Shown here one piece after another: positions 2 to 23,464 of a stretch of 64,000 bases of DNA. A program made the translations under genes and the position numbers. Source of the DNA: Candidatus Paralachnospira caecorum (GTDB lineage: Bacteria; Bacillota; Clostridia; Lachnospirales; Lachnospiraceae); contig CAJFHG010000012.1 of the NCBI GenBank assembly GCA_904379015.1, positions 40-64,039 of the forward strand. The letters are read 5' to 3'. Below the pieces are notes generated by a model that saw only the letters and a list, made by a program, of their open reading frames with translations, ran no database searches and was not told the DNA's origin. Position 1 is the stretch's first letter; each line of letters begins with the position of its first letter.

Positions 2-196
2 GAGTTAATTCCTGCGGTAGACCATGCGGAAAAGCTGATACGCGATGCAAAAGACCAGCCAATCTTAAACGCGGCTATTGTGTCGGATGTGGATGTTATT
101 CTCACAGGCGATAAAGATTTTCTTAGCCTGGATATGGAGCATCCAAAGTGCATGACTGTGGCACAATTTCTTGAAAGCGAGGGTATAGAGGAATAA
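2..196 (+). CDS. PIN-family putative toxin, C-terminal part (gene starts before the window)
   Basis: Manual translation from base 2 gives ELIPAVDHAEKLIRDAKDQPILNAAIVSDVDVILTGDKDFLSLDMEHPKCMTVAQFLESEGIEE*. The RDxKD...ILTGDKDFL motif is typical of PIN toxins. Confidence 0.75.
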   Translation, partial: ELIPAVDHAEKLIRDAKDQPILNAAIVSDVDVILTGDKDFLSLDMEHPKCMTVAQFLESEGIEE

Positions 197-6199: not shown

Positions 6200-6280
6200 G
6201 CCTGCCGTTTGCTTTGGCGGCGTTGCCGTTTGCTCCGATGGCATTACCGTTTACTTCGATGGTATCACCGTTTGTCCCGG
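6200..6280. repeat. Imperfect 21-bp tandem repeat x4
   Basis: The core CCGTTT recurs at 6205, 6226, 6247 and 6268 (exact 21-bp period). Confidence 0.7.
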
Positions 6281-9200
6281 CGGCGGGCCTTTCGCTCAGC
6301 AATTTCCGCCGCGGCCAGGATTCCCAGCGAAATAACGGCGGAAATCCCGCTGAAGAAGACAAGGGGAAGAAACTGCGTTCTGTCGCCTGTTTCTGGCGCC
6401 GTCAGTGAATCCGCGGAATCATCCGCTGCGGATGCTCCGGATTCTTCCGGATCTGTTTCGGCGGCGCTGCCCGGATCGTTTTCCGGAGCAGCCCCGGACG
6501 GTTCGCCGGGGGCCGCTGCGGAATTTTCGGAGCTTTCTTCTGGTGCGGTTCCGGATTCTTCCGGAGGCTGGCCGCCGCCTGACGGCGTTGTGGGAGTTTC
6601 CGGCCCGGAGGGGGTTTCCGGAGTCTCCGGTTCCGAGGGGGCCGTGTAACGGTTGCGGAAAACGGGAGCGCTGCCGCCTTCGTATTCCACAGACGCCAGA
6701 AGGTGCCCGCTCTGATCGTCCTTTACGGTGATGGCGATCCGATAGACATTCTGGTCGTAGGTGATCCCTTCTGCGCTGCCGGATTCTTCGGAAACGGTGT
6801 AGTAATACGTACCGGGCGCGTCGAAGGTGAGTGAAGGAAAGGGAATCGTTCCGCTTTCTGTGTTGACGGCCGCTGCCGCTTCCCGACCCTGTTCATCTCT
6901 TAACAGGAAGGAGAATTCACCGGCCTGCAGGCTGCGTCCCGTCAGCTCTTTTCCGGCGGTCAGGTACACGGTGGCCGGAGCGGGGCTGTAGGAGTTGCGG
7001 AATACCAGATCCCGCGCCGTCAGGTCGGCTGAGGCCTGGAGCGCGCCGCCCTGGTCGCTGACAGAAACGGTAATTTCATAGACCGTTTGATCGTACTGAT
7101 ATCCGGCCGTGCCCAGATCTTTTTCGTAGAGCCGGTACACATAAGTTCCGGCCTGACTGTACTGAATGGTCCCGAAGGAAAAGCTGCCCGCCATGTTCGC
7201 GGTTTCGGCAGAGGCGCCTGTCCCGCCCGGCATCGGCATGTCGCCTGTTGTGGAGGAGACTGCCTCCAGAACAAAGCGGAACTGTCCGTCCTTCATGGTT
7301 CCTCCGGTCAGTTCCTTGGTGCCGGAGATCACGTAGGAGGCCATGGAAGGGTGATACTGGTTTTCAAAGGCGATTGCTGCCGCCGGAGCGCCGTCCTTCG
7401 TATAAGAAACATCTGCCTGAAGCTGTCCGCCGGCATCTGTGACCTGAACCGTTATGACAAACACGCTGCTGTCGATGAGAATGCCGCCGGCGGAGGTGTT
7501 GTTTTCCCGCACCGTATACCGGTAGGTTCCGGCTTCTGTGTAGGTGACGGGGCCGTTCAGAAGCGGGATTCTGCCGTCCGCCGCATTCGTAAGGGCCTCG
7601 TTGGCTGCGACCGGGTCGGAGGCGGGATTACTCTGGTCAGGAATCAGGCTGAAGCTGAATTCTCCGCCCTGCATGGTGTAGCTGCTGCCGCTCTGGGCGG
7701 TCACAGTTTTCCGGGCCTCCAGGCCCGTTCCGAAGACGGAAACGGGAGCAGGCGTGTAGGCGTTGGTGAATTCCACCGCGGCGTCCTGCGTCGTGATGAT
7801 GCCGGAGGCGCTGCCGGCTCCCGGCGTTACAGCGCCGTTCACGGAAACGGAGCTGAGGGTGTAGCCCGGCGGCAGATTGATTTCTGTGACCGTATACCGG
7901 CTGTGGGCGGCGATATCCGGTATGGCAATGGTCTCTCCGCCACTCAGGGTAAATTCAACGGAGCCGGAACTGCTGAAGGAGAGGGTTTCCGGGCTTGTTT
8001 CCTGTCCGTTTTTCCGGACGGCGCTGACAGACTGACCTGCTTTGGAAGGCAGAGAAAGGGAAAAGGTGAAGGTCTGGTCCGGCGCAGTCAGCCCGCCGGC
8101 CGTTTCTGTCTTTTTCCCAATGGTCAGAGAATGGCTCAGGGCGTCCGCCTGAAGGAGCCCGTTATTCCCCAGATAGACCCGGAAGGCGCCGTTTCCGGCA
8201 TAGGTGGGATAATAACAGGACTGCGCGGTGCCGGTCGTGTTGGAGGTCTTGAGTTTTTCAAAGTCCCTTAAATTGCCCAGTCTCGGCGCGCCTGCCTGAA
8301 GCTCCAGCTGTCCGCCGGGACCGGTGGGAGCCGCGGCAGGCGTTCTGTCTGTCTCGTAAAAGATGGAACCCTTGCGGGACACGACTGCCGTTTCAGAAGC
8401 GGTGCCGTCATAAAACCGGATCTGGAAATAGTAGACCGTGTCCGGATCCAGCGCCCCGTCAGCCGGATGATTCAGGTGTTCGTCCAGGTACAGAGGCGTA
8501 TTTTCCTGGACATAGTAAAAGGGATTGGTGTGTGCCGGCGTGAAGGTCACAAAGGCGTCTCCCACCGTCGCTCCGCCGTCCTGTGATCCGCCGTATCCGG
8601 GGTCTGTATCCCCGCTGTAGCGGCCGCTGTAAAAATTGACCCGGCTGTCGGAGACGTTCGCGGCAAGATAGGACTCAGACAGCGCGGCGGTATTGGCCGT
8701 GCCGTCGCTGTTCAGAACCTGGTCCTGTGTTCCGACGCTGTAAATGACCCGGATCGGATAGGCTTCGCCGGCCGTGTGGTCTGCCGCGGTGCCGTCCGCG
8801 TTCAGCGTGATCTCATTGACCCGCATGGGGATCGCGGCTGCCGGAATTTTCACGGTGAGTTCCTGGGTTTTCTCCCGGGTCAGAGGATCGGTGACAGTTT
8901 TGACGGCGATTTCGATCAGCCCCGCGTCGATCTTGCCGTATACGGGACTGTCCACCTGTCCCTGGAAGGTATAAGAGACCGTGTCGCCGGAGGTCCGGAC
9001 ATCTTTCTGGGTAAATTCTGTTCCTCCGTAGATCAGTTCCCGGATATCTTTGATCTCCATGTATGCTCCGATATAATCGGTATAAGTGATGTATCCGTCG
9101 TGGAAGGCGTCGTTTCCGGTGACTTCAGTGGGCACCTGGGCCGCGGCCACGATTTCCGAGACAATTTCTGTGAATATGGTGTTCAGTTCATCAGAATCCT

Positions 9201-10656
9201 CCGCCGAATAATAGGCGTCCGGGTAATAGAGGGAGTCCGGATTGCGTTCTGTGTCGGCGATCAGGACCTGATAGTCCCGCTCATCTCCGTTGGAACCCAG
9301 CTTTCCCCGGACTGTGGGGGTATGGCCGCCGCTGTAGTCCTCCCATGCCCGGGCGATCTGCCGGACGGCCTCATGGCTGCTTGCCTGGGCCGTATCCAGG
9401 TGAGCTTCGGGATCCAGTACGAGTCCGGCCATTTCCGCCATGCCGTCGGTCTGGAGGGCGGTGCTGAATCCGATGGTATAGACGCTGGCAGCGTCCTGGC
9501 TGTCAGGAGTCCCGTAATAGTGGGCGGTGATCTCGTTTTTCATATAGGCGGCCGTCAGAAGGGCCATAAAGCCGTTGGCGCTGTGGGGATTGGAATTGTC
9601 CCCGCCGCCGATGGCTTCGCTGGAGACGCCCTCCCACCAGGAACCGCTGCTGGTGTCGTCCCCCCGCACGTCCGTGTCGTGGGTGATGGTGCCGTGCTGT
9701 CTGGCGCTTCCGCTGTCTGTCCAGCTGGCATCCGCGGCGGAGGCGAAGGTGGTGGGCGCGCCGTCTGACATCAGCACCACATTGGGAAGCCGGGTCACGG
9801 TGCCGCCCGCGGCGGTCCTGAATTCTGTGTCCTTTGCTTCGGACAGAATGCGCATGCCTTCGTAGAGTCCGGCCTGGATATTGGTTCCGCCGGCAGTCGA
9901 GACAGTCTTCTGATTGATGCTGCTGGTGATCTGCGCCTTTCCGTCGTCCTGTCCGGTCGTGCCGGAGAACTGGCTCATGGTGAGATAGGTTCCCGAGGTT
10001 CTGACATGCCCGGGAATGTCCTTTATTTCGGTCAGTTCCAGCAGCGTGTCAGAACTGCCGTTGAATACGGCAATGGCGATCCGGTTATGGGCGCTGCTTT
10101 TTGCCAGAACGTCGATGGAGCTGTTCAGGGCTTTTACCATGGCCTGGATCCGGGAATCGCTTCCGTCCTCCAGGGAAACTTTCTGAGAATCAACGCCCCA
10201 GCACATGCTTGCCGAGAGGTCGAGGATGAATACCACGTCCGCCGGCTGTCCGGAGATGACCTTCGTGGAAGTCGCGAAGGCGGAATAGGTGACCAGGAAA
10301 TCTTCGTTTTCCAGCTTCTGGATCTGAACAGAGTCTCCCGCGTCGCCGGTAAAGGTCAGATCTTCCGTGCTGACAGACTTGTCTGTCCAGACACGGCCTG
10401 AATAACGGGTGGAATCGGTATCTCCCAGCCCGGTTTTGTAAGAGCTGCGTGTATCGCTGTCGGCGGCGGCTGTCAGTCCGGCCGCCTGCGCCAGCAGGGG
10501 GGATGCTTCCCGGGGAAACGCCGTGAACGCCAGTGCTGCGGCCAGAAAAGCCGCCGCTGCGGCGCGGAGGGTTTTCCCGCAGAAAGACGAAGCTTTGCGG
10601 TGACGCAGAGCTTTTTTCGATTTCTGGTTTACAAACCTGTTTATAAAAACGTTCAT
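6265..10656 (-). CDS. Large sortase-anchored pilin/adhesin: vWA domain, CnaB/Spy0128(FctA)-like repeats, APETG sorting signal
   Basis: N-terminal signal peptide; MIDAS DVVFILDLSASM; three K(E/T)(L/V)T...F.F.L...GTY.Y...E repeats; Pro/Glu-rich linker; APETG plus TM helix plus basic tail RKARRRDKR. Confidence 0.85.
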   Translation of the reverse strand: MNVFINRFVNQKSKKALRHRKASSFCGKTLRAAAAAFLAAALAFTAFPREASPLLAQAAGLTAAADSDTRSSYKTGLGDTDSTRYSGRVWTDKSVSTEDLTFTGDAGDSVQIQKLENEDFLVTYSAFATSTKVISGQPADVVFILDLSASMCWGVDSQKVSLEDGSDSRIQAMVKALNSSIDVLAKSSAHNRIAIAVFNGSSDTLLELTEIKDIPGHVRTSGTYLTMSQFSGTTGQDDGKAQITSSINQKTVSTAGGTNIQAGLYEGMRILSEAKDTEFRTAAGGTVTRLPNVVLMSDGAPTTFASAADASWTDSGSARQHGTITHDTDVRGDDTSSGSWWEGVSSEAIGGGDNSNPHSANGFMALLTAAYMKNEITAHYYGTPDSQDAASVYTIGFSTALQTDGMAEMAGLVLDPEAHLDTAQASSHEAVRQIARAWEDYSGGHTPTVRGKLGSNGDERDYQVLIADTERNPDSLYYPDAYYSAEDSDELNTIFTEIVSEIVAAAQVPTEVTGNDAFHDGYITYTDYIGAYMEIKDIRELIYGGTEFTQKDVRTSGDTVSYTFQGQVDSPVYGKIDAGLIEIAVKTVTDPLTREKTQELTVKIPAAAIPMRVNEITLNADGTAADHTAGEAYPIRVIYSVGTQDQVLNSDGTANTAALSESYLAANVSDSRVNFYSGRYSGDTDPGYGGSQDGGATVGDAFVTFTPAHTNPFYYVQENTPLYLDEHLNHPADGALDPDTVYYFQIRFYDGTASETAVVSRKGSIFYETDRTPAAAPTGPGGQLELQAGAPRLGNLRDFEKLKTSNTTGTAQSCYYPTYAGNGAFRVYLGNNGLLQADALSHSLTIGKKTETAGGLTAPDQTFTFSLSLPSKAGQSVSAVRKNGQETSPETLSFSSSGSVEFTLSGGETIAIPDIAAHSRYTVTEINLPPGYTLSSVSVNGAVTPGAGSASGIITTQDAAVEFTNAYTPAPVSVFGTGLEARKTVTAQSGSSYTMQGGEFSFSLIPDQSNPASDPVAANEALTNAADGRIPLLNGPVTYTEAGTYRYTVRENNTSAGGILIDSSVFVITVQVTDAGGQLQADVSYTKDGAPAAAIAFENQYHPSMASYVISGTKELTGGTMKDGQFRFVLEAVSSTTGDMPMPGGTGASAETANMAGSFSFGTIQYSQAGTYVYRLYEKDLGTAGYQYDQTVYEITVSVSDQGGALQASADLTARDLVFRNSYSPAPATVYLTAGKELTGRSLQAGEFSFLLRDEQGREAAAAVNTESGTIPFPSLTFDAPGTYYYTVSEESGSAEGITYDQNVYRIAITVKDDQSGHLLASVEYEGGSAPVFRNRYTAPSEPETPETPSGPETPTTPSGGGQPPEESGTAPEESSENSAAAPGEPSGAAPENDPGSAAETDPEESGASAADDSADSLTAPETGDRTQFLPLVFFSGISAVISLGILAAAEIAERKARRRDKR

Positions 10657-11079: not shown

Positions 11080-11189
11080 GGGGTGAGACATTTGAGCCGG
11101 CGAAGTCCCGCAGGGGGCCGGTGAAGCTGTCTGAAGAGGGAAACTGTTAAATTTATCCCGGAAAATGTTGTAGAGACACAGTGATAAAA

Positions 11190-11948
11190 ATGGAAAAAGA
11201 GCAGAAGCAGAAACGGCGGCAGGAGCAGCAGATCATGCGGCAGGAGAGCCATGCGGCGGAAGAACAGATGGAACAGCACAGGTCCCGGAGCCAGGAGCCG
11301 GAAAAGGAACCGTATGTACCGGTGAGGGCCGGTGTTCTGAGCCAGGAAGAGGCGGCACGCGTAAAAGAAGTTCTGGCTGCTGAGGAAACTGCCGGGGAGG
11401 CTGCCGGAAACATTGCCGGCAAAGCAGATATCCAAAAAGAGAACGTCAAAAAAGCAAACACGGAAAAAGAAAACATCGAAAAAGAATATGCCGAAGAAGA
11501 AACTATCAGAAACGATATGGTAAAAGAAGATGCGGGGACGGGAGACGCGAAGGCGAAGGCCGCGGAGGCCGGTGCAGACCGGAAAATCCGGTATAAGCTG
11601 TCGGAAGGGCTGAAAATGCGCAAGGTGGCAGGACAGACCATGATTGTTCCCATCGGTTCGGCTGTCAGGACCATCGGCCAGACAGCGGTGCTCAATCCGG
11701 AGGCGGCGTTTCTGGTCAGCCAGATGAAAGAATGGTTCACGCCTGAGGAAGTTGTCAGGAAGGGACTGGAGGTGTATGACGCCGATGAGGATAAGCTCCG
11801 CTCCGATGTCATGGAGCTGGTGGAGATACTTTTCCGTTCAGGAATGCTGATTGAGGATACAGAGGATGGACGAGGTAAGAGAGGACGGGCGTCAGGAATT
11901 GTCCGGGTTCCCGCAGGGAAGGATTTACCCGGTCCAGGCAGCCTTTGA
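11190..11948 (+). CDS. PqqD-family RiPP recognition element with a long acidic/charged N-terminal extension (module 1)
   Basis: The C-terminal half YKLSEGLKMRKVAGQTMIVPIG...LNPEAAFLV...DVMELVEILFRSGML has the PqqD fold; the first ~130 aa are E/K/A-rich low complexity. Confidence 0.8.
   Translation: MEKEQKQKRRQEQQIMRQESHAAEEQMEQHRSRSQEPEKEPYVPVRAGVLSQEEAARVKEVLAAEETAGEAAGNIAGKADIQKENVKKANTEKENIEKEYAEEETIRNDMVKEDAGTGDAKAKAAEAGADRKIRYKLSEGLKMRKVAGQTMIVPIGSAVRTIGQTAVLNPEAAFLVSQMKEWFTPEEVVRKGLEVYDADEDKLRSDVMELVEILFRSGMLIEDTEDGRGKRGRASGIVRVPAGKDLPGPGSL
11433..11537 (+). repeat. Degenerate 15-bp coding repeat in the PqqD extension
   Basis: CAAAAAGAGAACGTC/AAAAAAGCAAACACG/GAAAAAGAAAACATC/GAAAAAGAATATGCC/GAAGAAGAAACTATC encodes QKENV KKANT EKENI EKEYA EEETI. 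Confidence 0.6.
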
Positions 11949-13035
11949 GCTGACGCCGAGATGCAATTTCAGATGTAAGATGTGCTACGTCAGGCTGGAC
12001 GGCAGCGCGGTCGGGCGCTATGGCAGGGAGCTGAGCGCGGAGGAATGGATCCGGATGGGCGAGGCGGCAGCGGAGGCGGGAACGCTGAGGCTGACGATTA
12101 CCGGCGGAGAACCGCTGGTCAGAGAGGATTTTCCTCAGATTTATCAGGAACTGACGGAAATGGGTTTTCTGATCACGCTTCAGACCAATCTGTCGCTGCT
12201 GGACGGCAGGGTAATGGATCTGATCGCGGACCGGCCTCCGGTTATGATCAAGTCGACACTGTACGGTGCTTCAGAAGAGACATATGAGCGTGTGTGCGGT
12301 GTAAAGAACGGCCTGGCCAGGGTCCGGCGCGGCATTGAAAATGTGCGGCAGGCAGGGATTCCGCTGACGCTGGTGTCCACGATCATAAAGGATAATCAGC
12401 CGGAGCTGGACGCCATTCACCGTCTGGCAGCGGAGTACGGTTATCCCCTGCAGCATACCCATAATGTGCTTGACAGCCGGAGAAATGAAAATGGAGACGC
12501 CGCGTCAAAGCTGAGGATCGAGTTTGGCAGCCTGTGTCCTGAGGAAAAGGCAAAGGTGGATCTGAAGATCCATAAACCCCAGGGGAATCCGCTGGAAATC
12601 TGCGGGAATTACCGCTTCGGCGGATACTGGATCTTGTGGGATGGCCAGATGAGCCTCTGCGCCCATATGAAAATGGAGAAGCGGTATGAGCCGCTGAGAG
12701 AGGCCGGGAAAGCCGCCGAGAAGACAGAAAACAGCGGACAGAATATCAACAAACAGGGTATCAGCAGACCGGATGTCAGCAGTTTTTGGACATCTGGAGA
12801 GTCAGAAGGGCAGGAAGCCGGCGGGAATGAAATCGAGCGCTGCTTTTACAGAATGAGAAAGGATCTGGAAGAACAGTATCGGAAAAGCGGCTGCGGAGAA
12901 TGTCAATATGGTCAATACTGTACGGCGTGTCCGGCAGTGTTATATACAAGAAAGATCAGTGTCGGGACAGAGCAGTGCAGGGCGCTGGCAAAAGAGCGAG
13001 TACAGGAAAAAAGAGATAGAGATCGGAAAAGATAG
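11866..13035 (+). CDS. Radical SAM/SPASM peptide maturase (module 1)
   Basis: ELTPRCNFRCKMCY (CxxxCxxC), ITGGEP, and SPASM cysteines C...WDGQMSLC...CGECQYGQYCTACP...C. Confidence 0.9.
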   Translation: MDEVREDGRQELSGFPQGRIYPVQAAFELTPRCNFRCKMCYVRLDGSAVGRYGRELSAEEWIRMGEAAAEAGTLRLTITGGEPLVREDFPQIYQELTEMGFLITLQTNLSLLDGRVMDLIADRPPVMIKSTLYGASEETYERVCGVKNGLARVRRGIENVRQAGIPLTLVSTIIKDNQPELDAIHRLAAEYGYPLQHTHNVLDSRRNENGDAASKLRIEFGSLCPEEKAKVDLKIHKPQGNPLEICGNYRFGGYWILWDGQMSLCAHMKMEKRYEPLREAGKAAEKTENSGQNINKQGISRPDVSSFWTSGESEGQEAGGNEIERCFYRMRKDLEEQYRKSGCGECQYGQYCTACPAVLYTRKISVGTEQCRALAKERVQEKRDRDRKR

Positions 13036-13114
13036 ATAAGAGAAGCAATAAGAAAAACAGGTAAAAAGAAAAAGTAAGATAAAGTCAGAGCGTGATGCTC
13101 GAGAGGAGGAAAAT

Positions 13115-13435
13115 ATGCCTACAGTAAGTGGAATTAGAAGAAAGCCTGCGTATGGAGGAGCAGAAATTTCTTTATTTAGTGTAAATAATTCTGTTAGTCA
13201 GTCAGGTACGTTTGGTTCAGCAGAAGGTATGGTGAGTTATCACTGGTCATTATCATGGGATGAGTCTGGCTTTTCAGGTGTCGTAGGTGATTGGTATGTA
13301 GGCCCTCCAAATTATAACGTAACAAAAGCAGGAGACTTGGAAGGCCTTTCTGATTTGCATTATGGAGCCATTGCTGAATATCGAGTTAATGCGAACCATA
13401 CTAATTGTACAACTTATGAACAAACAACACCATAG
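13115..13435 (+). CDS. Putative RiPP precursor peptide 1 (106 aa, G/S/aromatic-rich)
   Basis: Strong RBS (GAGGAGGA) before ATG; lies between rSAM and kinase; shares motifs with the peptide in module 2. Confidence 0.65.
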   Translation: MPTVSGIRRKPAYGGAEISLFSVNNSVSQSGTFGSAEGMVSYHWSLSWDESGFSGVVGDWYVGPPNYNVTKAGDLEGLSDLHYGAIAEYRVNANHTNCTTYEQTTP

Positions 13436-14165
13436 TAATCTTGCGAGCTTTTGTTTTCTGATTTGTTTGACAGTACCACTGGATTCTCGATGGAGACAAT
13501 TTAATTATATAACATCGGATAATAATGATTTGATATTTACTATTGAGGAATATTCGGACCAAGGATTGATCATAAGGGATGACAATGCTGTAGTTGCAAA
13601 GTGTAAGAGCAATGGGATAGAAAATGTACATATATTTGACGATGTAGTTTATCGCCTTTGCATGGAGGTCCTCATTACCAAACCCGTACTTCATTTTCAT
13701 AGTTCGTTTGTTATGTACATTGACCAGGCAATTCTTTTCACTGGCCCGTCCGGTATTGGAAAAACAACTCAGGCCGAGTTATGGCGGGATTACGAAGATG
13801 CGATTATTGTCAATGGTGACGTCACATTGATTCGGAAAATAGATGATGTGTGGCGTGCCTTTGGTGCTCCGATCCATGGATCCAGTCCGTACTGTGAGAA
13901 TATGGATGCTCCTATAGCAGCCATTATTGTTCTGAAACAGGCAGAAGAGAACCAATTGATTCGGCTGGATGCTTTTACGGCGCTTGGTGAATGTTTTCCG
14001 GAAATTTACAGGCCGGAAATGTCGGATGAAACCTACGAGATTTTATTGGATACGGTAGATGCATTATTTTCAGAGATTCCTGTATATCAACTGAGCTGCC
14101 GTCCGGACAGAGAGTCTGTTGAATTGGTAAAACAAACATTATTTGATCAGAATCCGGAGCTGTAA
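13416..14165 (+). CDS. HPr-kinase-like P-loop protein (module 1); exact start uncertain
   Basis: FHSS...ILFTGPSGIGKTTQAELW...VNGD...GAPIHGSS...YQLSCRPD. Confidence 0.8.
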   Translation: MNKQHHSNLASFCFLICLTVPLDSRWRQFNYITSDNNDLIFTIEEYSDQGLIIRDDNAVVAKCKSNGIENVHIFDDVVYRLCMEVLITKPVLHFHSSFVMYIDQAILFTGPSGIGKTTQAELWRDYEDAIIVNGDVTLIRKIDDVWRAFGAPIHGSSPYCENMDAPIAAIIVLKQAEENQLIRLDAFTALGECFPEIYRPEMSDETYEILLDTVDALFSEIPVYQLSCRPDRESVELVKQTLFDQNPEL

Positions 14166-14264
14166 AGCCGGATTATGGCAGGAGTAACCAAGAAATACTG
14201 CAGATATCACAGACGGGTTTGATGTTGAATTTTAAATCAAACCTTAAAAAGAATGAATAAATTT

Positions 14265-14300
14265 ATTTAATAAAGATATCGAAAGGTATCTTTATTAAAT
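14265..14300. promoter_or_regulatory. Perfect 14-bp inverted repeat upstream of the module 2 promoter
   Basis: ATTTAATAAAGATA-tcgaaagg-TATCTTTATTAAAT. Confidence 0.6.
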
Positions 14301-14368
14301 TACAGAAAAAAGTGTTAAAATATGCATAAATAATCAAGAGTAATTTATCAAATATGCACAAAAATGCA

Positions 14369-14397
14369 TTGACAAAAAATGGAAGTAAAGATATAGT
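14369..14397 (+). promoter_or_regulatory. sigma70-type promoter of module 2
   Basis: TTGACA (14369-74), 17-bp spacer, TATAGT (14392-97). Confidence 0.7.
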
Positions 14398-14467
14398 TAG
14401 AGTGAATTGCAGAGGAAATAACGGATATCTGTCTAAGAAATGGAAGCATTTAGATTGGAGGACGAAA

Positions 14468-14794
14468 ATGCGGCTGAAAGACAATCTGGTTTTGAGAAAA
14501 GTCGCAGGGCAGTTTGTCATTGTGCCTGTGGGAAAGCGGGTACAGGAAATTCCTAACACAGTGTATATTTCTTCTTCGGCAGCGTTTCTTTGGGATTACA
14601 TGAAGGAAAATGAATTTACCGAAGAAATTTTAACAGATAAAATCATGGAGCATTATACTGGTGTGACCAGAGAAACGGTTCAGGAGGATATCCGGCAGTT
14701 CCTGGATGTGCTCAGAAAAAATCGAATTCTGGAAAAAGAGCCGGGAGAGAGTGAACCGGAAGGTGGTACAGTGAGGGTGGTTATCCGAAAATGA
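14468..14794 (+). CDS. PqqD-family RiPP recognition element (module 2)
   Basis: MRLKDNLVLRKVAGQFVIVPVG...SAAFLWDYM...EDIRQFLDVLRKNRILE; GGAGG RBS; ATGA overlap with the rSAM gene. Confidence 0.85.
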   Translation: MRLKDNLVLRKVAGQFVIVPVGKRVQEIPNTVYISSSAAFLWDYMKENEFTEEILTDKIMEHYTGVTRETVQEDIRQFLDVLRKNRILEKEPGESEPEGGTVRVVIRK

Positions 14795-15867
14795 TGCCGG
14801 GCAGCTTTGACAGAAAAGACTGCAGCGGGATTCCTGAAGGAAATGAATTTTACAGGGTCATGGCGGAGGAGGCCAGAAAACATGCGATTCCGCTGTCTGG
14901 GACTTTTGAATTGACGCCGCGGTGCAATTTTAATTGTAAAATGTGTTATGTTCATCTGGCAGCAGACAGAATTCCGCTGTTTGGAAAAGAACTGACTGCG
15001 GCTGAATGGATCCGTGTGGCTGAGGAAGCCAGAGACGCGGGAATGCTGCAGCTTTGCATTACCGGAGGAGAACCGATTCTTCATCCGGAGTTTGAAACTA
15101 TATACAGAGAAATTTCCCAGATGGGATTTTTTATTACGCTGCAGACAAACGCATCTGTGTTATCAGATAATATTTTGTGTCTCCTGGAGGAATACCCGCC
15201 CCAGGATGCTAAAATAACCATATATGGATCTGATAATGAAATTTACAGGGCTGTGTGCGGTGTCGAAAACGGTTTTACAAGGACAGATCAGGGCATCCGA
15301 GACCTTCTTCAGCTGGAAATTCCAGTTATGTCGGTTACGACAGTGATCAAACAAAATAAAGATGACCTGGAAAATATATATCAATATACACAGAAACTAA
15401 AAATTCCGTGGATATATACATCGGGCGTAAAGCCTTCTGTTCGAGGGGCCGAAACAAATGCCAGAGAAGTGGCGATAGATGAAGAATCGGCGACAGATTA
15501 CAGAGAAGACGTAAGACAGATGATACAAAGACCTGCGATGAAGGATGAAAAGAAACCCTGTGAATATTGCAGAGGATATCGCATGAGTTTTTGGGTCAGC
15601 TGGGATGGGAATATGCGGTTCTGTTCGTTTATGAATGAGCCGGATATTTCTGTGATGGAGCATACATTTTCAGAAGCCTGGAAACGACTGGTTGAATATG
15701 AAGAAAGGCTTCAGTGGCCGGTTTCATGCAGAACGTGTGAAATCAGACATATATGCAGACGCTGCATTGGTATGTTGGCTGCGTTCAGCGGAAGCGCTGA
15801 CAGAGTAGATGAGGATTACTGTAAATATATACAGGCATATGTTGAACAAGAAAGAAGGAGAAAATAA
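14791..15867 (+). CDS. Radical SAM/SPASM peptide maturase (module 2)
   Basis: FELTPRCNFNCKMCY, ITGGEP, and SPASM C..C...WDGNMRFC...CRTCEIRHICRRC...C. Confidence 0.9.
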   Translation: MMPGSFDRKDCSGIPEGNEFYRVMAEEARKHAIPLSGTFELTPRCNFNCKMCYVHLAADRIPLFGKELTAAEWIRVAEEARDAGMLQLCITGGEPILHPEFETIYREISQMGFFITLQTNASVLSDNILCLLEEYPPQDAKITIYGSDNEIYRAVCGVENGFTRTDQGIRDLLQLEIPVMSVTTVIKQNKDDLENIYQYTQKLKIPWIYTSGVKPSVRGAETNAREVAIDEESATDYREDVRQMIQRPAMKDEKKPCEYCRGYRMSFWVSWDGNMRFCSFMNEPDISVMEHTFSEAWKRLVEYEERLQWPVSCRTCEIRHICRRCIGMLAAFSGSADRVDEDYCKYIQAYVEQERRRK

Positions 15868-15869
15868 AA

Positions 15870-16160
15870 ATGGAAGAAGGATATGTAAAGGTAAAAGCGG
15901 CAGCAGTGAGTCTTATGTCCGCAAATGTAAATGGATCTGATTTAGAAAATGGACAAACTACAGGAACATTGGGGATACATTGGGAAGTGTATGCTGATGG
16001 TAGAGGAGGAATTTCAGGGATTGATTGGCCGGATGAAAGTCTTTATGTATCTGGAAATCCTGGACGTACTAATCAGAATATCACAAACTATATTAACGAT
16101 TTGGTGTGGACATCTGAATGGGAGCAGTTTAGAGCGAAATATGGAAGTTGTGCTGTGTAA
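15870..16160 (+). CDS. Putative RiPP precursor peptide 2 (96 aa)
   Basis: Starts 2 bp after the rSAM stop with an AAGGAG RBS; its TAA overlaps the kinase ATG (TAATG); motif similarity to peptide 1. Confidence 0.7.
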   Translation: MEEGYVKVKAAAVSLMSANVNGSDLENGQTTGTLGIHWEVYADGRGGISGIDWPDESLYVSGNPGRTNQNITNYINDLVWTSEWEQFRAKYGSCAV

Positions 16161-16933
16161 TGTATCAATACAAGTTGATCGATGAATATTTATATATAGA
16201 TCATGAAGTGCCTTTTTTAGAAAAATATAATTCTTCTAGTAACATCGATATAGCAACTGATATATGTATCGAATTAATGGTGAATCCATTCATCTGTTAT
16301 GGTATCAATGTTATTACATGTGCAAAAGATGAACTTATTTTAAAGAATCGTGAAGGGATTCTGATGGTAAATAAACTTTATGGAAACGGCAGATTATATG
16401 CGGACAAAGAAGAGGATGCCTCTCCTTTGATTATGTTGTTTTTATATTCTCATCTCATTCCCAAGCAAACGCTTCTTTTCCACAGCTCTCTTGTTGATTT
16501 TTCGGGCTCCGGAATTATGTTTCTTGGACCCTCTGGTATAGGGAAGACAACCCAGGCGGAGCTTTGGAACAAATATCTTGGTGCGGATATTCTGAACGGC
16601 GATATGGTTTTTACCCGGAAGAACGAGGATGGATTTTATGGCTATGGTTCGCCATGGCATGGATCATCGCCATATTACAAGAATGCCAAGGTAAAACTGA
16701 AGGCGCTGGTTGTTCTGGAGCAGGCGGGGGAAAACACATTAAAGCGGCTGGAAGGGTTTGATGTTTTGCAGGGCATTATGGAACAGGTATTTCTTCCCCA
16801 CTGGTATCCGGAAGCTATGGATACTTGTCTGAATACGCTGGATCTGCTGCTTGAAGAGGTTCCGGTATATCATCTTGCCTGCAGGCCGGATGAAGATGCA
16901 GTTTTATTGTTGAAACAAGAACTTGGATTATAA
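16160..16933 (+). CDS. HPr-kinase-like P-loop protein (module 2)
   Basis: FHSS...IMFLGPSGIGKTTQAELW...LNGD...GSPWHGSS...YHLACRPD; clear paralog of 13416-14165. Confidence 0.85.
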   Translation: MYQYKLIDEYLYIDHEVPFLEKYNSSSNIDIATDICIELMVNPFICYGINVITCAKDELILKNREGILMVNKLYGNGRLYADKEEDASPLIMLFLYSHLIPKQTLLFHSSLVDFSGSGIMFLGPSGIGKTTQAELWNKYLGADILNGDMVFTRKNEDGFYGYGSPWHGSSPYYKNAKVKLKALVVLEQAGENTLKRLEGFDVLQGIMEQVFLPHWYPEAMDTCLNTLDLLLEEVPVYHLACRPDEDAVLLLKQELGL

Positions 16934-16945
16934 AATATTGAAATG

Positions 16946-17012
16946 ATTCCCGGCAGTTGTTTCCCAACTTTGCTGTTGTAAGTAAAGATGGAAAACAATG
17001 CCGGGAATTTTT
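16946..17012 (+). terminator. Long imperfect hairpin after module 2
   Basis: ATTCCCGGCA...TGCCGGGAAT arms (16946-55 and 16999-17008) followed by a T run. Confidence 0.5.
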
Positions 17013-17131
17013 GGATGCTGCAGGCCGCCCTGTATGTTTCGTTGACGTGGGAGAACGATTCATGGTAGGATAGAGGTATGACTGAGGGCAAATACATTTT
17101 TGTAGGAGAGATGAAGAAAGGCGGTAATTAT

Positions 17132-18040
17132 GTGGCCCAAAAAGATATCGCGGAGAAAATCCTCGAATCCTACAACGATGTATTTTCTGACATCGTAAAT
17201 GTTCTGCTGTTTGACGGAAGAGAAGTTGTGCCGGCTGATGAGCTTGAGGATCAGGCTCCCCGTGCATATTACAAGACAGATGGAAAAATACGAGAGATAG
17301 AAAGAGATGTGGCGAAGCGCTGGAAACAGGGAGGTATACGGATTGCCTGTGTGGGTCTGGAAAATCAGACCCGGGCAGATCCGGACATGCCTCTGCGTAT
17401 AATCGGATATGACGGTGCTGAGTACAGAGCGCAGCTGCTGGCGGATCGTATGGCTGGAAGCCGTTATCCTGTGGTCACGCTGGTCCTGTATTTCGGCTGT
17501 GAAAAGCATTGGGATCAGCCTCTTAGTCTGAAGGAACGACTGGAAATACCGCCCGAATGGGACCGTTTTGTGAATGACTATAGGATCAATTTGTTTGAAA
17601 TTGCTTATCTGGATGCAAATCAGGTTGAGCTGTTTCAGAGTGATTTTCGGATCGTTGCAGATTACTTTGTGCAGAAACGGGAGAAAGGTGATTACATCCC
17701 CAGTGAACGGGAAATCAGACATGTGCAGGAGACGCTGCAGCTGCTTAGCGTAATGTCAGGGGATTACCGATTTGAAGAGGCATATTATAGTAGTGAGGCG
17801 GAAGGAGGCCTGCGTAATATGTGTGACGTGCTGGATCGAGTGGAGTCAAAAGGAATTGAAAAAGGAATTGCAAAAGGAATTGAGAAAGGTCTTAGAGAAG
17901 GCAGGATGGAGGCCAAAAGGGAAATGGCTGTTTCATTGGCAGAAATGGGATTATCTGTGGAAAAAATCGCAGAAGCTGCCAGGGTAAGCACCGAGGTGGT
18001 GAGACAGTGGATTGCCTGCGGCGGTCATCCGGCGGGATAA
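17132..18040 (+). CDS. Rpn-family recombination-promoting nuclease / putative transposase (PD-(D/E)XK)
   Basis: QKDIAEKILESYNDVFSDIVN...ERDVAK...GLENQT..D..MPLR...YD...YPVVTLVLYFG; C-terminal EKGIAKGIEKG.REG repeats. Confidence 0.8.
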   Translation: MAQKDIAEKILESYNDVFSDIVNVLLFDGREVVPADELEDQAPRAYYKTDGKIREIERDVAKRWKQGGIRIACVGLENQTRADPDMPLRIIGYDGAEYRAQLLADRMAGSRYPVVTLVLYFGCEKHWDQPLSLKERLEIPPEWDRFVNDYRINLFEIAYLDANQVELFQSDFRIVADYFVQKREKGDYIPSEREIRHVQETLQLLSVMSGDYRFEEAYYSSEAEGGLRNMCDVLDRVESKGIEKGIAKGIEKGLREGRMEAKREMAVSLAEMGLSVEKIAEAARVSTEVVRQWIACGGHPAG

Positions 18041-18343: not shown

Positions 18344-20107
18344 GTGTTTCGGTTCGTGAGCCGCTTGTTTCAGAAATTATTTGCGAAAAACTGGGGGAAG
18401 ATCATTTCTTCCTGGATCTGGATCTACAGCTATGTGAAGCGGTACTGGCTGCAGATCGCGGTCTATACAGTCCTGGGCCTGTTCGGAACTGTGTTCGGGC
18501 TGGCCGGCAGCGTGGTGTCCAAAAACCTGATCGACGCGGTGACGGGCTTTAATTCGGATTCGATTGGCTGGGCCTTTGGGCTCTATGTGGGCCTGGGGGT
18601 CAGCCGCGTGTTCATCAACATTGTGACAGGCAAGATTTCTCTGCTGATCTCTACCAAGGTGGCCCATGAGATCCAGGCGGATGTCTTTGACCAGGTGATG
18701 TGCACGGACTGGGAGGCCATGTCCGATTATTCCACGGGAGATCTGCTGGTGCGGACTTCCGGTGATTCGGCGGTGATCTCCAACAGCGTCCTGAGCTTTA
18801 TTCCGAGCGCCGTTACGGCCATCGCCAATTTTATCGGGGCCTTTGCCATTGTCTGCTGGCATGATCCGCTCATGGCGGTGATCGCGCTGGCCGGAGCGCC
18901 GGTGACGGTGATCACTTCCCGGTACCGGCTGGAGAAAATGCAGCAGTTCCAGAGGGAAAATCAGGATCTGTACAGCAAGAAGATGAGCTTTGACCAGGAA
19001 ACATTCCAGAATACTCAGTCCATCAAGGCCTTCGGCCTGATCAGTCAGTTCTCGAAAAAGATGCGGGAGCTGCAGCAGGAGTCGCTGGCCCTTTCGCTGC
19101 GCCAGTACCGGTATCAGTCGGTCACGTCCATTCTGGTATCCCTCACCGGCCTGGCTGTCAGCTATTCCTGTTACGGGTTTGCCGTCTGGCGGCTGTGGCG
19201 GGGGGATATTTCCTACGGCACGATGACTCTGTTCGTGTCCATGGCCTCTTCCCTGACCGGCTCCTTCAGCTCGGTGGTCAGTCTGATCCCCACGGCGATC
19301 CGCTCCGCCACCAGCGCCGAGCGGATCATGGATATCATCACCCTTCCCCGGGAGTCCTATGAGGATCAGGAGAGGGCGGAACAAATCCGGGATATCGGGC
19401 GGAAAAAAGGCGCTTACGTTCATATGGAAAACGCGGGCTTTGCCTATAAGGACGGGCGCGATGTGTACAGACATGCCGATATGGAAGCGAATCCGGGCGA
19501 GATCGTGGCTCTGATCGGGCCCTCGGGCCAGGGCAAGACCACCACCCTCCGGTTGTTTCTGGGGCTTCTGCAGCTGAAGGAAGGCCGGATCCGGGTGGGA
19601 AATCCGGGCGGAGACGAGCTTTTCGTGTCCCCTTCGACCCGGTGCCTGTTCAGCTACGTTCCCCAGGGAAACACCATGTTTTCCGGAACGGTGGCGGATA
19701 ATCTGAGGATGGTGAAGCCGGAGGCCACGGACCAGGAGCTGAAGGAAGCGCTGGAGGCGGCCCATGCCTGGGAATTTGTGGGCCGTCTGGAAAAGGGCAT
19801 GGATACCAGGGTGGGAGAACGGGGACTGGGCTTTTCTGAAGGCCAGAACCAGCGGCTCTCCATTGCCAGAGCGCTCCTGGCGGACGCGCCGCTCCTGCTT
19901 CTGGACGAGGCGACCAGCGCCCTGGATGTGGCGACAGAACGGAAGGTGCTGCGCAGCATCATGAAAAAGGACCCCTACAGGACGATTGTGGTGACGGCCC
20001 ACCGGCCCAGCGTGTTTTCCATGTGCAGCAGAGTTTATAAGATACAGGACGGCGGGATAGAGGAAGTGGACGAGCAGGGAATCAGACAGTTCCTGGAAGC
20101 ATTCTAG
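18344..20107 (+). CDS. ABC exporter, fused permease/ATPase, no C39 peptidase domain
   Basis: Six-TM N-terminal half; GPSGQGKTT Walker A; FSEGQ signature; LLLLDEATSALD Walker B. Confidence 0.9.
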   Translation: MFRFVSRLFQKLFAKNWGKIISSWIWIYSYVKRYWLQIAVYTVLGLFGTVFGLAGSVVSKNLIDAVTGFNSDSIGWAFGLYVGLGVSRVFINIVTGKISLLISTKVAHEIQADVFDQVMCTDWEAMSDYSTGDLLVRTSGDSAVISNSVLSFIPSAVTAIANFIGAFAIVCWHDPLMAVIALAGAPVTVITSRYRLEKMQQFQRENQDLYSKKMSFDQETFQNTQSIKAFGLISQFSKKMRELQQESLALSLRQYRYQSVTSILVSLTGLAVSYSCYGFAVWRLWRGDISYGTMTLFVSMASSLTGSFSSVVSLIPTAIRSATSAERIMDIITLPRESYEDQERAEQIRDIGRKKGAYVHMENAGFAYKDGRDVYRHADMEANPGEIVALIGPSGQGKTTTLRLFLGLLQLKEGRIRVGNPGGDELFVSPSTRCLFSYVPQGNTMFSGTVADNLRMVKPEATDQELKEALEAAHAWEFVGRLEKGMDTRVGERGLGFSEGQNQRLSIARALLADAPLLLLDEATSALDVATERKVLRSIMKKDPYRTIVVTAHRPSVFSMCSRVYKIQDGGIEEVDEQGIRQFLEAF

Positions 20108-20292: not shown

Positions 20293-20907
20293 ATGGCAGG
20301 ATTTGCGGCGGGAATTTTGAATGATGTGTTGTTGTCTTTTTATCAGCAGTTCGGGGCGGCGCTTTTGACTGCTGTTCTTTTCATGTACGTGTATATGCAT
20401 GTGAAAAAATACGGCGGAAAAGAGACGGTGCGGGCGTGGTTTGCCGGTTTCCGGAGAGAGAAGGAATTCAGAAAAGTCTTTCTGCTGGCATTTTATACCA
20501 TGATGATCCTGTTCAAGACGCTTTTGTGCCGTTCCATCTGGGTCAATCCCCTTTCAGATGTACTTGGGACCTGGGGCCTGTATGACAGCAAGGGACAGCT
20601 TTATCTGGATAATATTGAAAATCTGATGCTGTTTGTGCCCTTTGCCGCGCTGTTTCTCTGGACGGCGGGAAAGCGCGTATTCGGAGAACGGAGGAGATCG
20701 CCGGGCAGAAGCCTGGCCTGGGCCGCCGGGATCAGCTTTTTCGTGTCCCTTGGGATCGAGCTGCTCCAGCTGTTTCTCAAGCTGGGCACTTTTCAGGTTT
20801 CCGACCTGTTTTTCAACACCCTGGGCGGGGCGGCCGGAGGGCTGCTTTACTGGGGGCTGCACCGGCTCCGCATGAGGCTGGGGCGGGGCGGCCGGAAAAT
20901 CAAATAA
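20293..20907 (+). CDS. VanZ-family membrane protein
   Basis: IENLMLFVPF...SLGIELLQLFLKLGTFQVSDLFFNTLGG. Confidence 0.85.
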   Translation: MAGFAAGILNDVLLSFYQQFGAALLTAVLFMYVYMHVKKYGGKETVRAWFAGFRREKEFRKVFLLAFYTMMILFKTLLCRSIWVNPLSDVLGTWGLYDSKGQLYLDNIENLMLFVPFAALFLWTAGKRVFGERRRSPGRSLAWAAGISFFVSLGIELLQLFLKLGTFQVSDLFFNTLGGAAGGLLYWGLHRLRMRLGRGGRKIK

Positions 20908-21220
20908 GAGAGACAGAAAGGCAGGTGAGGAGTTGCTCATCTGCTTTTTGGCGCTTATAATCGGAAAATGAGGAAATCTGCCGTGATCTGCCGTCTGCTC
21001 CGCGGAAATCTGACAGAGACAGATGCGGAACGGACGGGGAAAAATGTGATAATTGAAAATTTTAGGAAAAGATTGTAAAAAAATACAATCTTTTCTGTTC
21101 TGCAAGGGTTTTCTTATTTACCGGTTTATGGTAAAATGTGCACCGAATAGTTTCATGACAAGGGTCTGGTCCGGAACCGGTCCGGACCGGCAGATTGAGA
21201 TAAGGAGTACGATACAGAGA

Positions 21221-22048: not shown

Positions 22049-22060
22049 AGGAGGCCAATC

Positions 22061-23437: not shown

Positions 23438-23464
23438 CGGCACGCAGGAAGCCGGGAGAGGAGA

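Follow-up and report, generated by a model that had tools for sequence, protein, structure and literature searches.

In this study we analysed a stretch of 64,000 nucleotides from the Lachnospiraceae bacterium Candidatus Paralachnospira caecorum (assembly GCA_904379015.1, contig CAJFHG010000012.1, positions 40 to 64,039 of the forward strand), which we call the window, and describe two small open reading frames (ORFs) in it, P1 and P2. Each of them sits between a radical S-adenosylmethionine (SAM)/SPASM gene and a gene with the HPr-kinase fold. Judged from their sequences, P1 and P2 are paralogs in an undescribed family of ~120-residue (95-140 aa), strongly acidic proteins that are rich in Trp, Tyr, Gly and Asn, and we regard them as candidate substrates of the enzymes encoded beside them.

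Genes of the two cassettes

The genes form twin tandem four-gene cassettes on the forward strand, each consisting of a PqqD-type gene, a radical SAM gene, the small ORF and a gene for a P-loop protein, and they lie upstream of an ATP-binding cassette (ABC) exporter gene. A reading of the window from its sequence alone (the sequence-only reading) had described the small ORFs as precursor-like partners of the PqqD/radical SAM pairs, and our results agree with this description.

Cassette 1 starts with PqqD1 (11181..11948, +), a protein of the type known as RiPP recognition element (RRE; RiPP, ribosomally synthesised and post-translationally modified peptide). It matches the Pfam PqqD family with an E-value of 2.2e-6 and the NCBIfam lasso PqqD chaperone with 2.1e-6; the PqqD domain covers residues 154-223, and the start codon is uncertain. 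The radical SAM enzyme rSAM1 (11851..13035, +; Pfam Radical_SAM E 3.7e-24) carries a CxxxCxxC motif and a Cys-rich, SPASM-like C-terminal region. P1 (13115..13435, +), a divergent small acidic precursor-like protein of 106 aa, is defined by its ORF, its ribosome-binding site and the family anchors described below. It is followed by HprK1 (13416..14165, +), a P-loop protein of HPr-kinase/PEPCK fold and ScmC type, which we assigned by homology to HprK2 and by the ScmC match of a homolog, and which has a variable N-domain and a conserved C-domain.

In cassette 2, the RRE is PqqD2 (14354..14794, +; Pfam PqqD E 3.5e-11), whose true start is probably the ATG at 14468 (MRLKDNLVLRKVAG...). The radical SAM/SPASM enzyme rSAM2 (14791..15867, +; Radical_SAM E 3e-22) shows the SPASM Cys pattern Cx12Gx4C...Cx2Cx5Cx2C in its translation. 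P2 (15870..16160, +) is a small acidic precursor-like protein of 96 aa, typical of the family by its hidden Markov model (HMM), and HprK2 (16160..16933, +) is an HPr-kinase-fold P-loop protein by its AlphaFold2 (AF2) model and Foldseek matches. The conserved last gene of the cassette encodes an MsbA-like ABC exporter without a peptidase domain (18344..20107, +; ABC_membrane and ABC_tran), which matches the exporters of syntenic loci with E-values of about 1e-220 to 1e-230. Between the two cassettes, identity is 39% for the radical SAM enzymes, 30% for the PqqD proteins and 48% for the kinases, the last value covering only the C-terminal 157 residues (HprK residues 104-260).

Each small ORF is preceded by a good ribosome-binding site, that of P1 being a strong AGGAGG at a distance of 6 nt. 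The start of P2 comes 3 nt past the stop of rSAM2 and its own stop overlaps the HprK2 start as TAATG, giving translational coupling on both sides.

A family of small acidic proteins

Taken alone, the sequence similarity of P1 and P2 is real but modest. BLASTP aligns 46 residues with 35% identity (E 0.011), and the Smith-Waterman score of 56 lies 4.5 standard deviations above shuffled sequences (30 +/- 5.8), with 8 of 5000 shuffles reaching it. Their homology is secured because the flanking genes are paralogous and because a family of ~170 representatives stands behind them. The existence and relationship of the two ORFs, as originally proposed, are borne out, and the motifs given for them are borne out in part.

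To find relatives, we searched 201 Lachnospiraceae genomes for the P-loop protein, which gave closely related loci with an unannotated ORF of 95-130 aa in the corresponding slot. A profile of seven such syntenic ORFs was then searched against 1.84 billion representative proteins (50% clustering) and yielded 172 matches at E<=1e-3, nearly all of them 95-140 aa long and aligned from end to end; the few long matches are unrelated low-complexity surface proteins. This profile was the only route to the family. A word-based homolog search with P1 and P2 returned near-identical copies and, in addition, one homolog of P1 (P0002, 76%), which stands in the same gene order in other metagenomes. When the family HMM was built without its close relatives, P2 matched it with an E-value of 1.4e-8.

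No entry in Pfam, NCBIfam or the PDB covers the family, and a sequence search of the PDB with its profile gave only chance antibody matches. On average the members have a net charge of -10, and they contain 3.7% Trp, 5.6% Tyr, 11.7% Gly, 7.9% Asn and 1.2% His. The AF2 model of P2 (mean predicted local distance difference test, pLDDT, 67) shows coil in residues 1-35, a hairpin in residues 38-48 over the W...G-I-S motif, and two helices. A fold search with this model found no match (best E 1.2), which says little given the moderate confidence of the model. We also considered whether the core motif is a choline- or cell-wall-binding repeat and rejected this, as no Pfam repeat model matches any of 113 members.

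Conserved residues

All conservation figures come from an alignment of 145 members. Three residues are invariant, namely an N-terminal Tyr (145/145; P2 Y5, P1 Y13), a Gly (P2 G47, P1 G52) and a Cys near the C-terminus (P2 C94, P1 C98). The Tyr opens the motif Y-V-x-V/I-x-A/G, with Val or Ile at +3 in ~90% and Ala or Gly at +5 in 96% of the members. In P2 this putative RRE-docking motif is Y5-A10 (Y-V-K-V-K-A; 15882..15899, +), taken from the family alignment, and in P1 it would be Y13-I18 (Y-G-G-A-E-I; 13151..13168, +), where the invariant Tyr and the leader spacing of lasso peptides and linear polyphosphorylated peptides (LPP) point to it. The idea that the N-terminal segment is a likely RRE-binding leader gains support from the invariant Tyr, the +3/+5 spacing, relatives with a YxxP leader and the similarity of PqqD2 to the lasso RRE TbiB1.

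Further along, the core follows the pattern W...G-F-T/S-G..W. Its first aromatic is Trp in 90% and Tyr in 10% of the members (P2 W38, P1 W48), the column after the Gly is Phe, Ile or Tyr in 98%, the next is Thr or Ser in 84%, and the second Trp, the "DW" position, is found in 94% (P2 W53, P1 W60). In the window the core motif corresponds to P1 W48-W60 (W-D-E-S-G-F-S-G-V-V-G-D-W; 13256..13294, +), placed by the family alignment, and P2 W38-W53 (W-EVYADGRG-G-I-S-G-I-D-W; 15981..16028, +), placed by alignment and the beta-hairpin of the AF2 model. Also near-invariant are the Leu of a G-N-L-N motif, a Trp (92%; P2 W84) and an aromatic residue (94%; P2 F87). From the alignment, the conserved aromatic residues together with Gly, Pro and Leu look like a structural scaffold within an otherwise hypervariable sequence.

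These patterns change several details of the sequence-only reading. Its leader-core architecture holds in so far as a leader-like segment and a G-x-S-G...W core are real, and the His-rich feature is not conserved: the His column has Asn as its top residue (28%), so that His also falls away as a conserved cross-link site. The proposed pairing of two HW motifs was off by four residues, since P1 W48 (in SLSW) and not W44 (in HW) aligns with P2 W38. The similarity written as (I/V)SL(F/M)SxN is restricted to P1 and P2 and is no family feature. Trp and Tyr had been listed as candidate aromatic cross-link sites; conserved Trp, Tyr and Phe residues occur over the whole length of the protein, accompanied by Gly, Pro and Leu, and nothing marks any of them out for such a role, though some may have it.

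The kinase target was sought in the Ser of the "SG" motif, a column that is mostly Thr (71%), with Ser in 13% and Ile in 9%. A far better candidate lies closer to the N-terminus. A Ser occurs within Tyr+15..19 in 143/145 members, usually followed by Gly, and other windows of five residues contain Ser in 30-71/145. The column aligned with P2 S23 holds Ser in 126/145, with a Ser within +/-2 of it in 143/145. In P2 the candidate is Ser23 (Tyr+18; 15936..15938, +), and in P1 it would be found in S26-S30 (S-V-S-Q-S; 13190..13204, +), either as S28 (Tyr+15) or as S30 (Tyr+17). We prefer this Ser over the G-F-T/S-G position because it has the same offset as the mapped phosphoserine of LPP (PMC13381572) and because the other column is mostly Thr.

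The remaining invariant residue is the Cys, found 2-8 residues before the C-terminus in 143/145 members; the other two sequences look frameshifted. Exactly one Cys is found in 114/145, and Gly precedes the Cys in 55% of the members, with Val, Ile, Ala or Leu following it. It was correctly noted before that the C-termini of P1 and P2 diverge and hold one Cys each, and this Cys proves to be the most conserved residue of the family. The scarcity of Cys had been taken to argue against a sactipeptide or ranthipeptide, and the data turn this argument round: the lone Cys does not vary, and among solved structures the single-thioether sactisynthase SkfB comes closest to rSAM2. P1 Cys98 (13406..13408, +) and P2 Cys94 (16149..16151, +), both placed by the family alignment, are the best candidate targets of the radical SAM enzymes.

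Distribution and synteny

Among 401 Lachnospiraceae genomes, one per genus, nine encode the small protein, in all cases in the order PqqD, radical SAM, small protein, kinase, which the ABC exporter may follow. When the kinase alignment was used to scan 185,579 species genomes, 80 loci came up. They belong to Lachnospiraceae (Blautia, Mediterraneibacter, Sellimonas, Dorea, Lachnoclostridium sp. An181), to the Oscillospirales families Acutalibacteraceae, Oscillospiraceae and Ruminococcaceae, and to Erysipelotrichales (Thomasclavelia saccharogumia, Faecalitalea cylindroides, Faecalicoccus pleomorphus), and many come from chicken or human gut. The exact five-gene order is found in 40/80 loci and a small ORF positive for the HMM in 59/80; most of the untruncated loci among the remainder have a divergent small ORF in the same slot. 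Gut strains in culture that carry the cassette are Sellimonas intestinalis BR72, Mediterraneibacter glycyrrhizinilyticus An427, Lachnoclostridium sp. An181, Thomasclavelia saccharogumia DSM 17460 and Faecalitalea cylindroides ATCC 27803.

Satellite cassettes with PqqD, small protein and kinase, and with neither radical SAM gene nor exporter, were found at five loci (L051, L056, L072 (=L033), L109, L112; here and below, individual loci are cited by our labels). At least four of the five assemblies that bear them hold a complete cassette elsewhere.

The surroundings of the cassettes also recur. A gene for an Ig-like surface protein lies within 3.5 kb in 56/80 loci and capsule genes of the Wzz/tyrosine-kinase (bacterial tyrosine kinase, BY-kinase) type in 49/80; both kinds, downstream of the exporter, recur across all three groups of loci. 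In the window, the genes past the exporter (20293-25042, +) encode a VanZ-like protein, an Ig-like surface protein and two Wzz/ParA-type, tyrosine-kinase-like proteins. With capsule genes so tightly linked, the cassette may act in the cell envelope or contribute to what sets strains apart in the gut microbiota.

Joint exchange of the small gene and the kinase N-domain

The comparison shows that a single low-GC hypervariable block, which encodes the small protein together with the N-domain of the kinase, is swapped between otherwise near-identical operons. In the contigs with P0002 (L128/L129), DNA identity to the window is 95-100% over rSAM1, P1 up to nt 147, the C-domain of kinase 1, PqqD2 and the beginning of rSAM2, and only 50-78% over window positions ~13265-13750. 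This identity drop and the GC content define a patch (13265..13750, +) that comprises P1 codons ~50-106 and the N-terminal domain of kinase 1. The same pattern is seen in other genomes: L077 and L086 are 99-100% identical over 7.5 kb save for ~700 nt at ~47%. This divergent stretch has sharp boundaries and coincides exactly with the small ORF plus the first ~100 codons of the kinase, and the pair L071 and L080 shows it too. Among 51 cassettes compared, pairs whose radical SAM enzyme, PqqD, kinase C-domain and ABC exporter are 95-100% identical have small proteins of 14-52% and kinase N-domains of 13-37% identity. Clustering at 60% identity gives 39 clusters for the small proteins and 8 for the radical SAM enzymes.

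The identities of small protein and kinase N-domain co-vary (Spearman 0.53 among pairs with conserved kinase C-domains, partial r 0.42), with the reservation that pairs are not independent. In 49 loci, the small ORF has a GC content of 40.6% and the kinase N-domain one of 34.3%, as opposed to 49.6-53.2% in the radical SAM gene, the kinase C-domain and the ABC exporter; in the window, the block has 36-39%, with 37-39% in the patch at 13265..13750, against 52-60%.

Because the small gene and the kinase N-domain are exchanged together, the N-domain probably reads the variable body of its cognate substrate. The swapping of a substrate and an enzyme recognition domain within a frozen operon is unusual among RiPP clusters, and it offers a natural experiment on substrate recognition by a tailoring kinase. 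A similar layout is known from comQXP and agrBDCA, where the gene of a secreted peptide and the adjoining part of a partner protein form a hypervariable block with sharp recombination boundaries in a conserved operon. These systems differ from ours in that there is no homology and the cassettes have no sensor kinase or response regulator, and a signalling role would be purely conjectural.

As side observations, window positions 13000-17000 form a low-GC island (33-46%, flanks 52-60%) with minima at the two small ORFs and the two kinase N-domains, and cassette 2 is closer than cassette 1 to the cassettes of other genera.

Identity of the partner enzymes

The nearest solved relative of PqqD2 is the lasso RRE TbiB1 (5v1u), with an E-value of 0.0037. 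For rSAM2 the best PDB matches are SkfB (E 4.4e-14 over 260 residues) and then PqqE (E 1.5e-8). The best NCBIfam matches of rSAM1 are PqqE, AhbD and ScmE, all far under the cut-offs, and the top matches of both radical SAM enzymes include PqqE and the mycofactocin maturase; no NCBIfam match of either enzyme comes near its cut-off.

HprK1 and HprK2 are predicted kinases of the HprK/PEPCK fold. The AF2 model of HprK2 (pLDDT 88.8; predicted template modelling score 0.87) has HPr kinase/phosphatase (1ko7, 1jb1) and PEPCK as top Foldseek matches with probability 1.0, and the kinase profile matches the P-loop region of PEPCK/HprK, with an invariant P-loop. Relatives of the kinase match ScmC (10/16), HprK_rel_B (9/16) and HprK_rel_A (8/16) weakly, with a best ScmC E-value of 4e-11, and an 82%-identical homolog of HprK1 in L128 has a precomputed Pfam ScmC match (PF27840).

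Comparison with known systems

The closest characterised system is that of the LPP, with the genes lppA-K-B-S-D-N (Popov et al., Nat Commun 2026; PMC13381572). LPP precursors have 35-200 aa, the motif YxxPxVLxHQxIxFETxxS and variable C-termini, and their clusters lie inside capsule loci; LppK polyphosphorylates the Ser at Tyr+18 (by the printed motif) and does not accept Thr; and the RREs of lasso peptides and LPP bind a [Y/W]xxPx[L/V/I/F/A] motif (PMC13381572). Like LPP clusters, the cassettes have a lasso-type RRE encoded as a separate protein, a gene for an HprK-like kinase that comes straight after that of the precursor, an exporter of the MsbA type, long precursors in which a conserved N-terminal Tyr motif precedes a highly variable remainder, and capsular-polysaccharide genes nearby. 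A Ser also stands ~18 residues after the Tyr (P2 S23 at Tyr+18, P1 S30 at Tyr+17), the position being a mapped phosphosite in LPP only. On the other hand, every full cassette has a radical SAM/SPASM enzyme, Val or Ile replaces the leader Pro, and the HQxIxFET part is absent; the family has the extra anchors W, G-F-T-G, W and GNLN..F..W and a C-terminal Cys that does not vary; and it is found in anaerobic gut Clostridia and Erysipelotrichales, whereas LPP are found in Bacilli. No LppS-like SpI/SipW (S24/S26) peptidase is found among the ORFs of 11.1-20.1 kb or in the canonical five-gene loci, and no LppN-like nucleoside triphosphate (NTP) transferase in the cassette or between the ABC and Wzz genes. 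Since the radical SAM/SPASM enzyme is present and the peptidase and NTP-transferase are absent, we conclude that this is not an LPP cluster. The cassette rather links the LPP pathway, which has the kinase only, to radical SAM RiPPs.

The trio of PqqD, PqqE-like radical SAM/SPASM enzyme and HprK-related P-loop protein is shared with the SynChlorMet cassette (TIGR04248-51) and the GeoRSP system of TIGRFAMs/NCBIfam (models ScmC TIGR04249, ScmE/F TIGR04250/1, HprK_rel_A/B), which are uncharacterised and have a bioinformatic definition only. In contrast to SynChlorMet, with two, each cassette here has one radical SAM enzyme, and the precursor family is another one without any model. The SynChlorMet cut-offs are not reached (ScmE: rSAM1 73 and rSAM2 71 bits against 400), and HprK1 and HprK2 themselves have no ScmC match at E<=0.01. 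A literature search gave nothing relevant on HPr kinase, radical SAM and PqqD together, or on SynChlorMet, GeoRSP and ScmC. The trio, in these systems and their relatives, is widespread and has no known product, and the present work gives one of its branches a well-defined family of candidate substrates with three testable residues: the Tyr, the Ser at +17 and the C-terminal Cys.

Among sactipeptides and ranthipeptides, the single-thioether case of SkfA/SkfB resembles the cassettes in its RRE-dependent radical SAM/SPASM enzyme and Cys-bearing precursor, and shows that one Cys can donate one thioether. The differences are that the RRE here is discrete and not fused, that the substrate is acidic and ~120 aa long, and that the kinase is an obligatory partner; a thioether is here an inferred product. 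In the phosphorylated lasso peptides of the paeninodin and pseudomycoidin clusters, the precursor is modified by an HPr-kinase homolog, and the clusters further contain an RRE of the B1 type and an ABC exporter (PMC8498205). These three components recur here, but those kinases target a C-terminal Ser, and few family members end in Ser. Neither the cassettes of the window nor the syntenic loci contain a lasso B2 leader protease or an asparagine-synthetase-like C cyclase. We considered the C-terminal Ser as kinase target after the paeninodin model and rejected it for the family, in which 21/145 members end in Ser, P1 ends in Pro and P2 in Val.

Proposed pathway and alternatives

We propose that the small proteins are the dedicated substrates of the five-gene cassette, a reading to which we give a probability of roughly 0.55. 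The pathway that we infer, with its chemistry, any cleavage and export, would begin with the docking of the PqqD-type RRE on the N-terminal Y-x-x-V/I-x-A/G strand. The kinase would then phosphorylate, in an LppK-like manner, the Ser ~17 residues downstream of the Tyr (P2 S23; P1 S28 or S30), with its variable N-domain recognising the variable body of the cognate small protein. The radical SAM enzyme would act on the C-terminal Cys, most likely forming one thioether staple, and the ABC pump would export the product near the capsule machinery.

Several observations weigh against this pathway. The reaction type of the radical SAM enzymes is a guess, as SkfB, AlbA, PqqE and ScmE are matched at the level of the superfamily only. 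The five satellites without a radical SAM gene in cis indicate that the radical chemistry may be optional or supplied in trans. No leader peptidase is found in the cassette, and therefore the border between leader and core cannot be delimited. With anchors along the whole protein and a modelled hairpin and helices, the product may be a small folded protein and not a classical peptide, and a mean net charge of -10 is unlike most bacteriocins. Lastly, P1 reaches only 11.2 bits with the family HMM used for P2, not above the best shuffle, and for this reason we treat it as a divergent member that is kept in the family by synteny and its anchor residues.

If the pathway holds, a further step would be to see the product as a phosphorylated, thioether-stapled acidic mini-protein that is exported as a variable surface or matrix component, with the small protein and the kinase N-domain as the serotype- or pherotype-like specificity module of a system tied to the capsule locus. 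We offer this as a tentative idea, well short of probable. Its surface role might be that of a phospho-linked anchor or primer of polysaccharide or of a strain-recognition determinant, and selection by phage, host or competitors would drive the wholesale replacement of alleles, with the kinase N-domain co-evolving. A ribosomal, radical SAM-modified protein would then serve as a variable surface component and not as an antibiotic.

The question arises whether the core aromatic residues could be the site of the radical chemistry instead. Under this alternative, which takes up the sequence-only reading and which we consider unlikely, C-C, C-N or C-O cross-links as in streptide, darobactin or triceptides would form at the core Trp and Tyr, and the kinase would target the Ser or Thr of G-F-S/T-G. 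In its favour, the two Trp positions are strongly conserved (90% and 94%), the first of them always being aromatic, the T/S column is hydroxylated in 84% of the members, and the model of the WgkB Lys-Trp maturase is among the rSAM2 matches with an E-value of 4e-18. This match, however, reaches 65 bits against a cut-off of 650, and the Trp residues have no conserved Lys or other partner adjoining them of the kind seen in the aromatic cross-link RiPPs (streptide, WGK, darobactin, triceptides). His is not conserved, and the conserved aromatic positions extend over 80 residues, interspersed with Gly, Pro and Leu, as in a fold scaffold. The T/S column is mostly Thr, which LppK rejects (PMC13381572), and has Ile in 9%. 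Moreover, the invariant Cys would be left unexplained.

The joint exchange of small gene and kinase N-domain, and the co-variation of their identities (0.53 and 0.42, as given above), could also be expected if the small protein were a folded partner of the kinase N-domain, for instance a strain-specific adaptor or one half of a pair of the immunity or toxin type, with the radical SAM enzyme and PqqD acting on something else. The satellites, which keep PqqD, small protein and kinase without the radical SAM gene, and the scaffold-like anchors fit this view as well. Yet the cassettes offer no alternative precursor candidate, a Tyr motif at the N-terminus and a separately encoded RRE are the typical signs of a leader and its RRE, and, apart from the satellites, the small gene directly follows the radical SAM gene and an exporter is attached. 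The folded state itself is seen in a model of moderate confidence without a fold match. We find this explanation quite unlikely.

Very unlikely, in our view, is a third possibility, in which the small protein is a scaffold as in the pyrroloquinoline quinone (PQQ), mycofactocin or pearlin pathways and a small molecule is made from its conserved C-terminal G-C-(V/I) end and set free. The handle would be its long conserved N-terminal part, the Cys is the sole invariant residue in the variable C-terminal third and is followed by Val, Ile, Ala or Leu, and PqqE and the mycofactocin maturase are among the top matches of both radical SAM enzymes. But the cluster has no protease or oxidoreductase, a hypervariable body is unexpected for a cofactor pathway, and the number of residues after the Cys varies from 2 to 8; exporter and capsule linkage fit a secreted macromolecule better.

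That the P1/P2 resemblance arose by chance and the ORFs are not genes, as the pairwise E-value of 0.011 and the marginal HMM score of P1 might suggest, is already refuted by the family of ~170 representatives, the Lachnospiraceae synteny and the 80-locus scan with a position fixed in >60 loci, next to ribosome-binding sites, translational coupling and the P1 homolog in other metagenomes.

Variant loci and other features of the window

Several loci carry other types of small protein. In one type, from Acutalibacteraceae, a true KK-x-Y-x-x-P leader occurs together with a C-terminus that reads G-C-(L/F). In an Acutalibacteraceae/Oscillospirales variant (L091, L100, L102, L116, L124, L125, L127) the order is ABC, PqqD, radical SAM, small protein, kinase, and the small proteins of ~90 aa have a KK-x-Y-x-x-P-x-S leader and two or three Cys, one of them near the C-terminus. 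By their sequence features, these ~90-aa proteins appear to bridge the YxxP precursors and the P1/P2 family.

Another precursor type, of 83-99 aa with a KxYxxP leader and four Cys, is found in other Lachnospiraceae (L009, L012, L014, L015, L019) beside a related kinase and radical SAM enzyme; 4/5 of these precursors end in Ser and 3/5 have a Ser at Tyr+18. The paeninodin-type C-terminal Ser target still fits these Cys-rich precursors. Across six such Lachnospiraceae loci in all, the clusters with a radical SAM gene have 4-Cys precursors and the one locus without it has a Cys-free precursor.

At eight loci (L008, L018, L020, L021, L023, L024, L029, L030) the kinase is paired with a cytoplasmic S24/S26-type signal-peptidase-like protein, several of them also with a PqqD protein or an ABC exporter, in an LPP-like arrangement. 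An IS21-like IstA/IstB pair adjoins the satellite cassette at L033. On the single contig of L006/L037/L082, a run of N spans exactly the slot of the small ORF between the radical SAM and kinase genes.

Within the window, an Rpn-family nuclease/transposase-like gene (17078..18040, +; TIGR01784 E 1.4e-7, below cut-off) lies between kinase 2 and the exporter. It is missing from the corresponding position in other loci, where the exporter directly follows the kinase, and this recombination-promoting gene looks like an insertion outside the conserved cassette. PqqD1 has a K/E/A-rich, low-complexity N-terminal extension of ~150 residues (window 11181-11640) that is absent from PqqD2 and from the PqqD proteins of other loci (~100-120 aa). 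Directly upstream of the cassettes and divergent to them (6265-10656, -), we find a gene for a 1463-aa surface protein with a VWA-like region, Spy0128/FctA-type isopeptide domains and a C-terminal membrane anchor, which is pilin- or adhesin-like.

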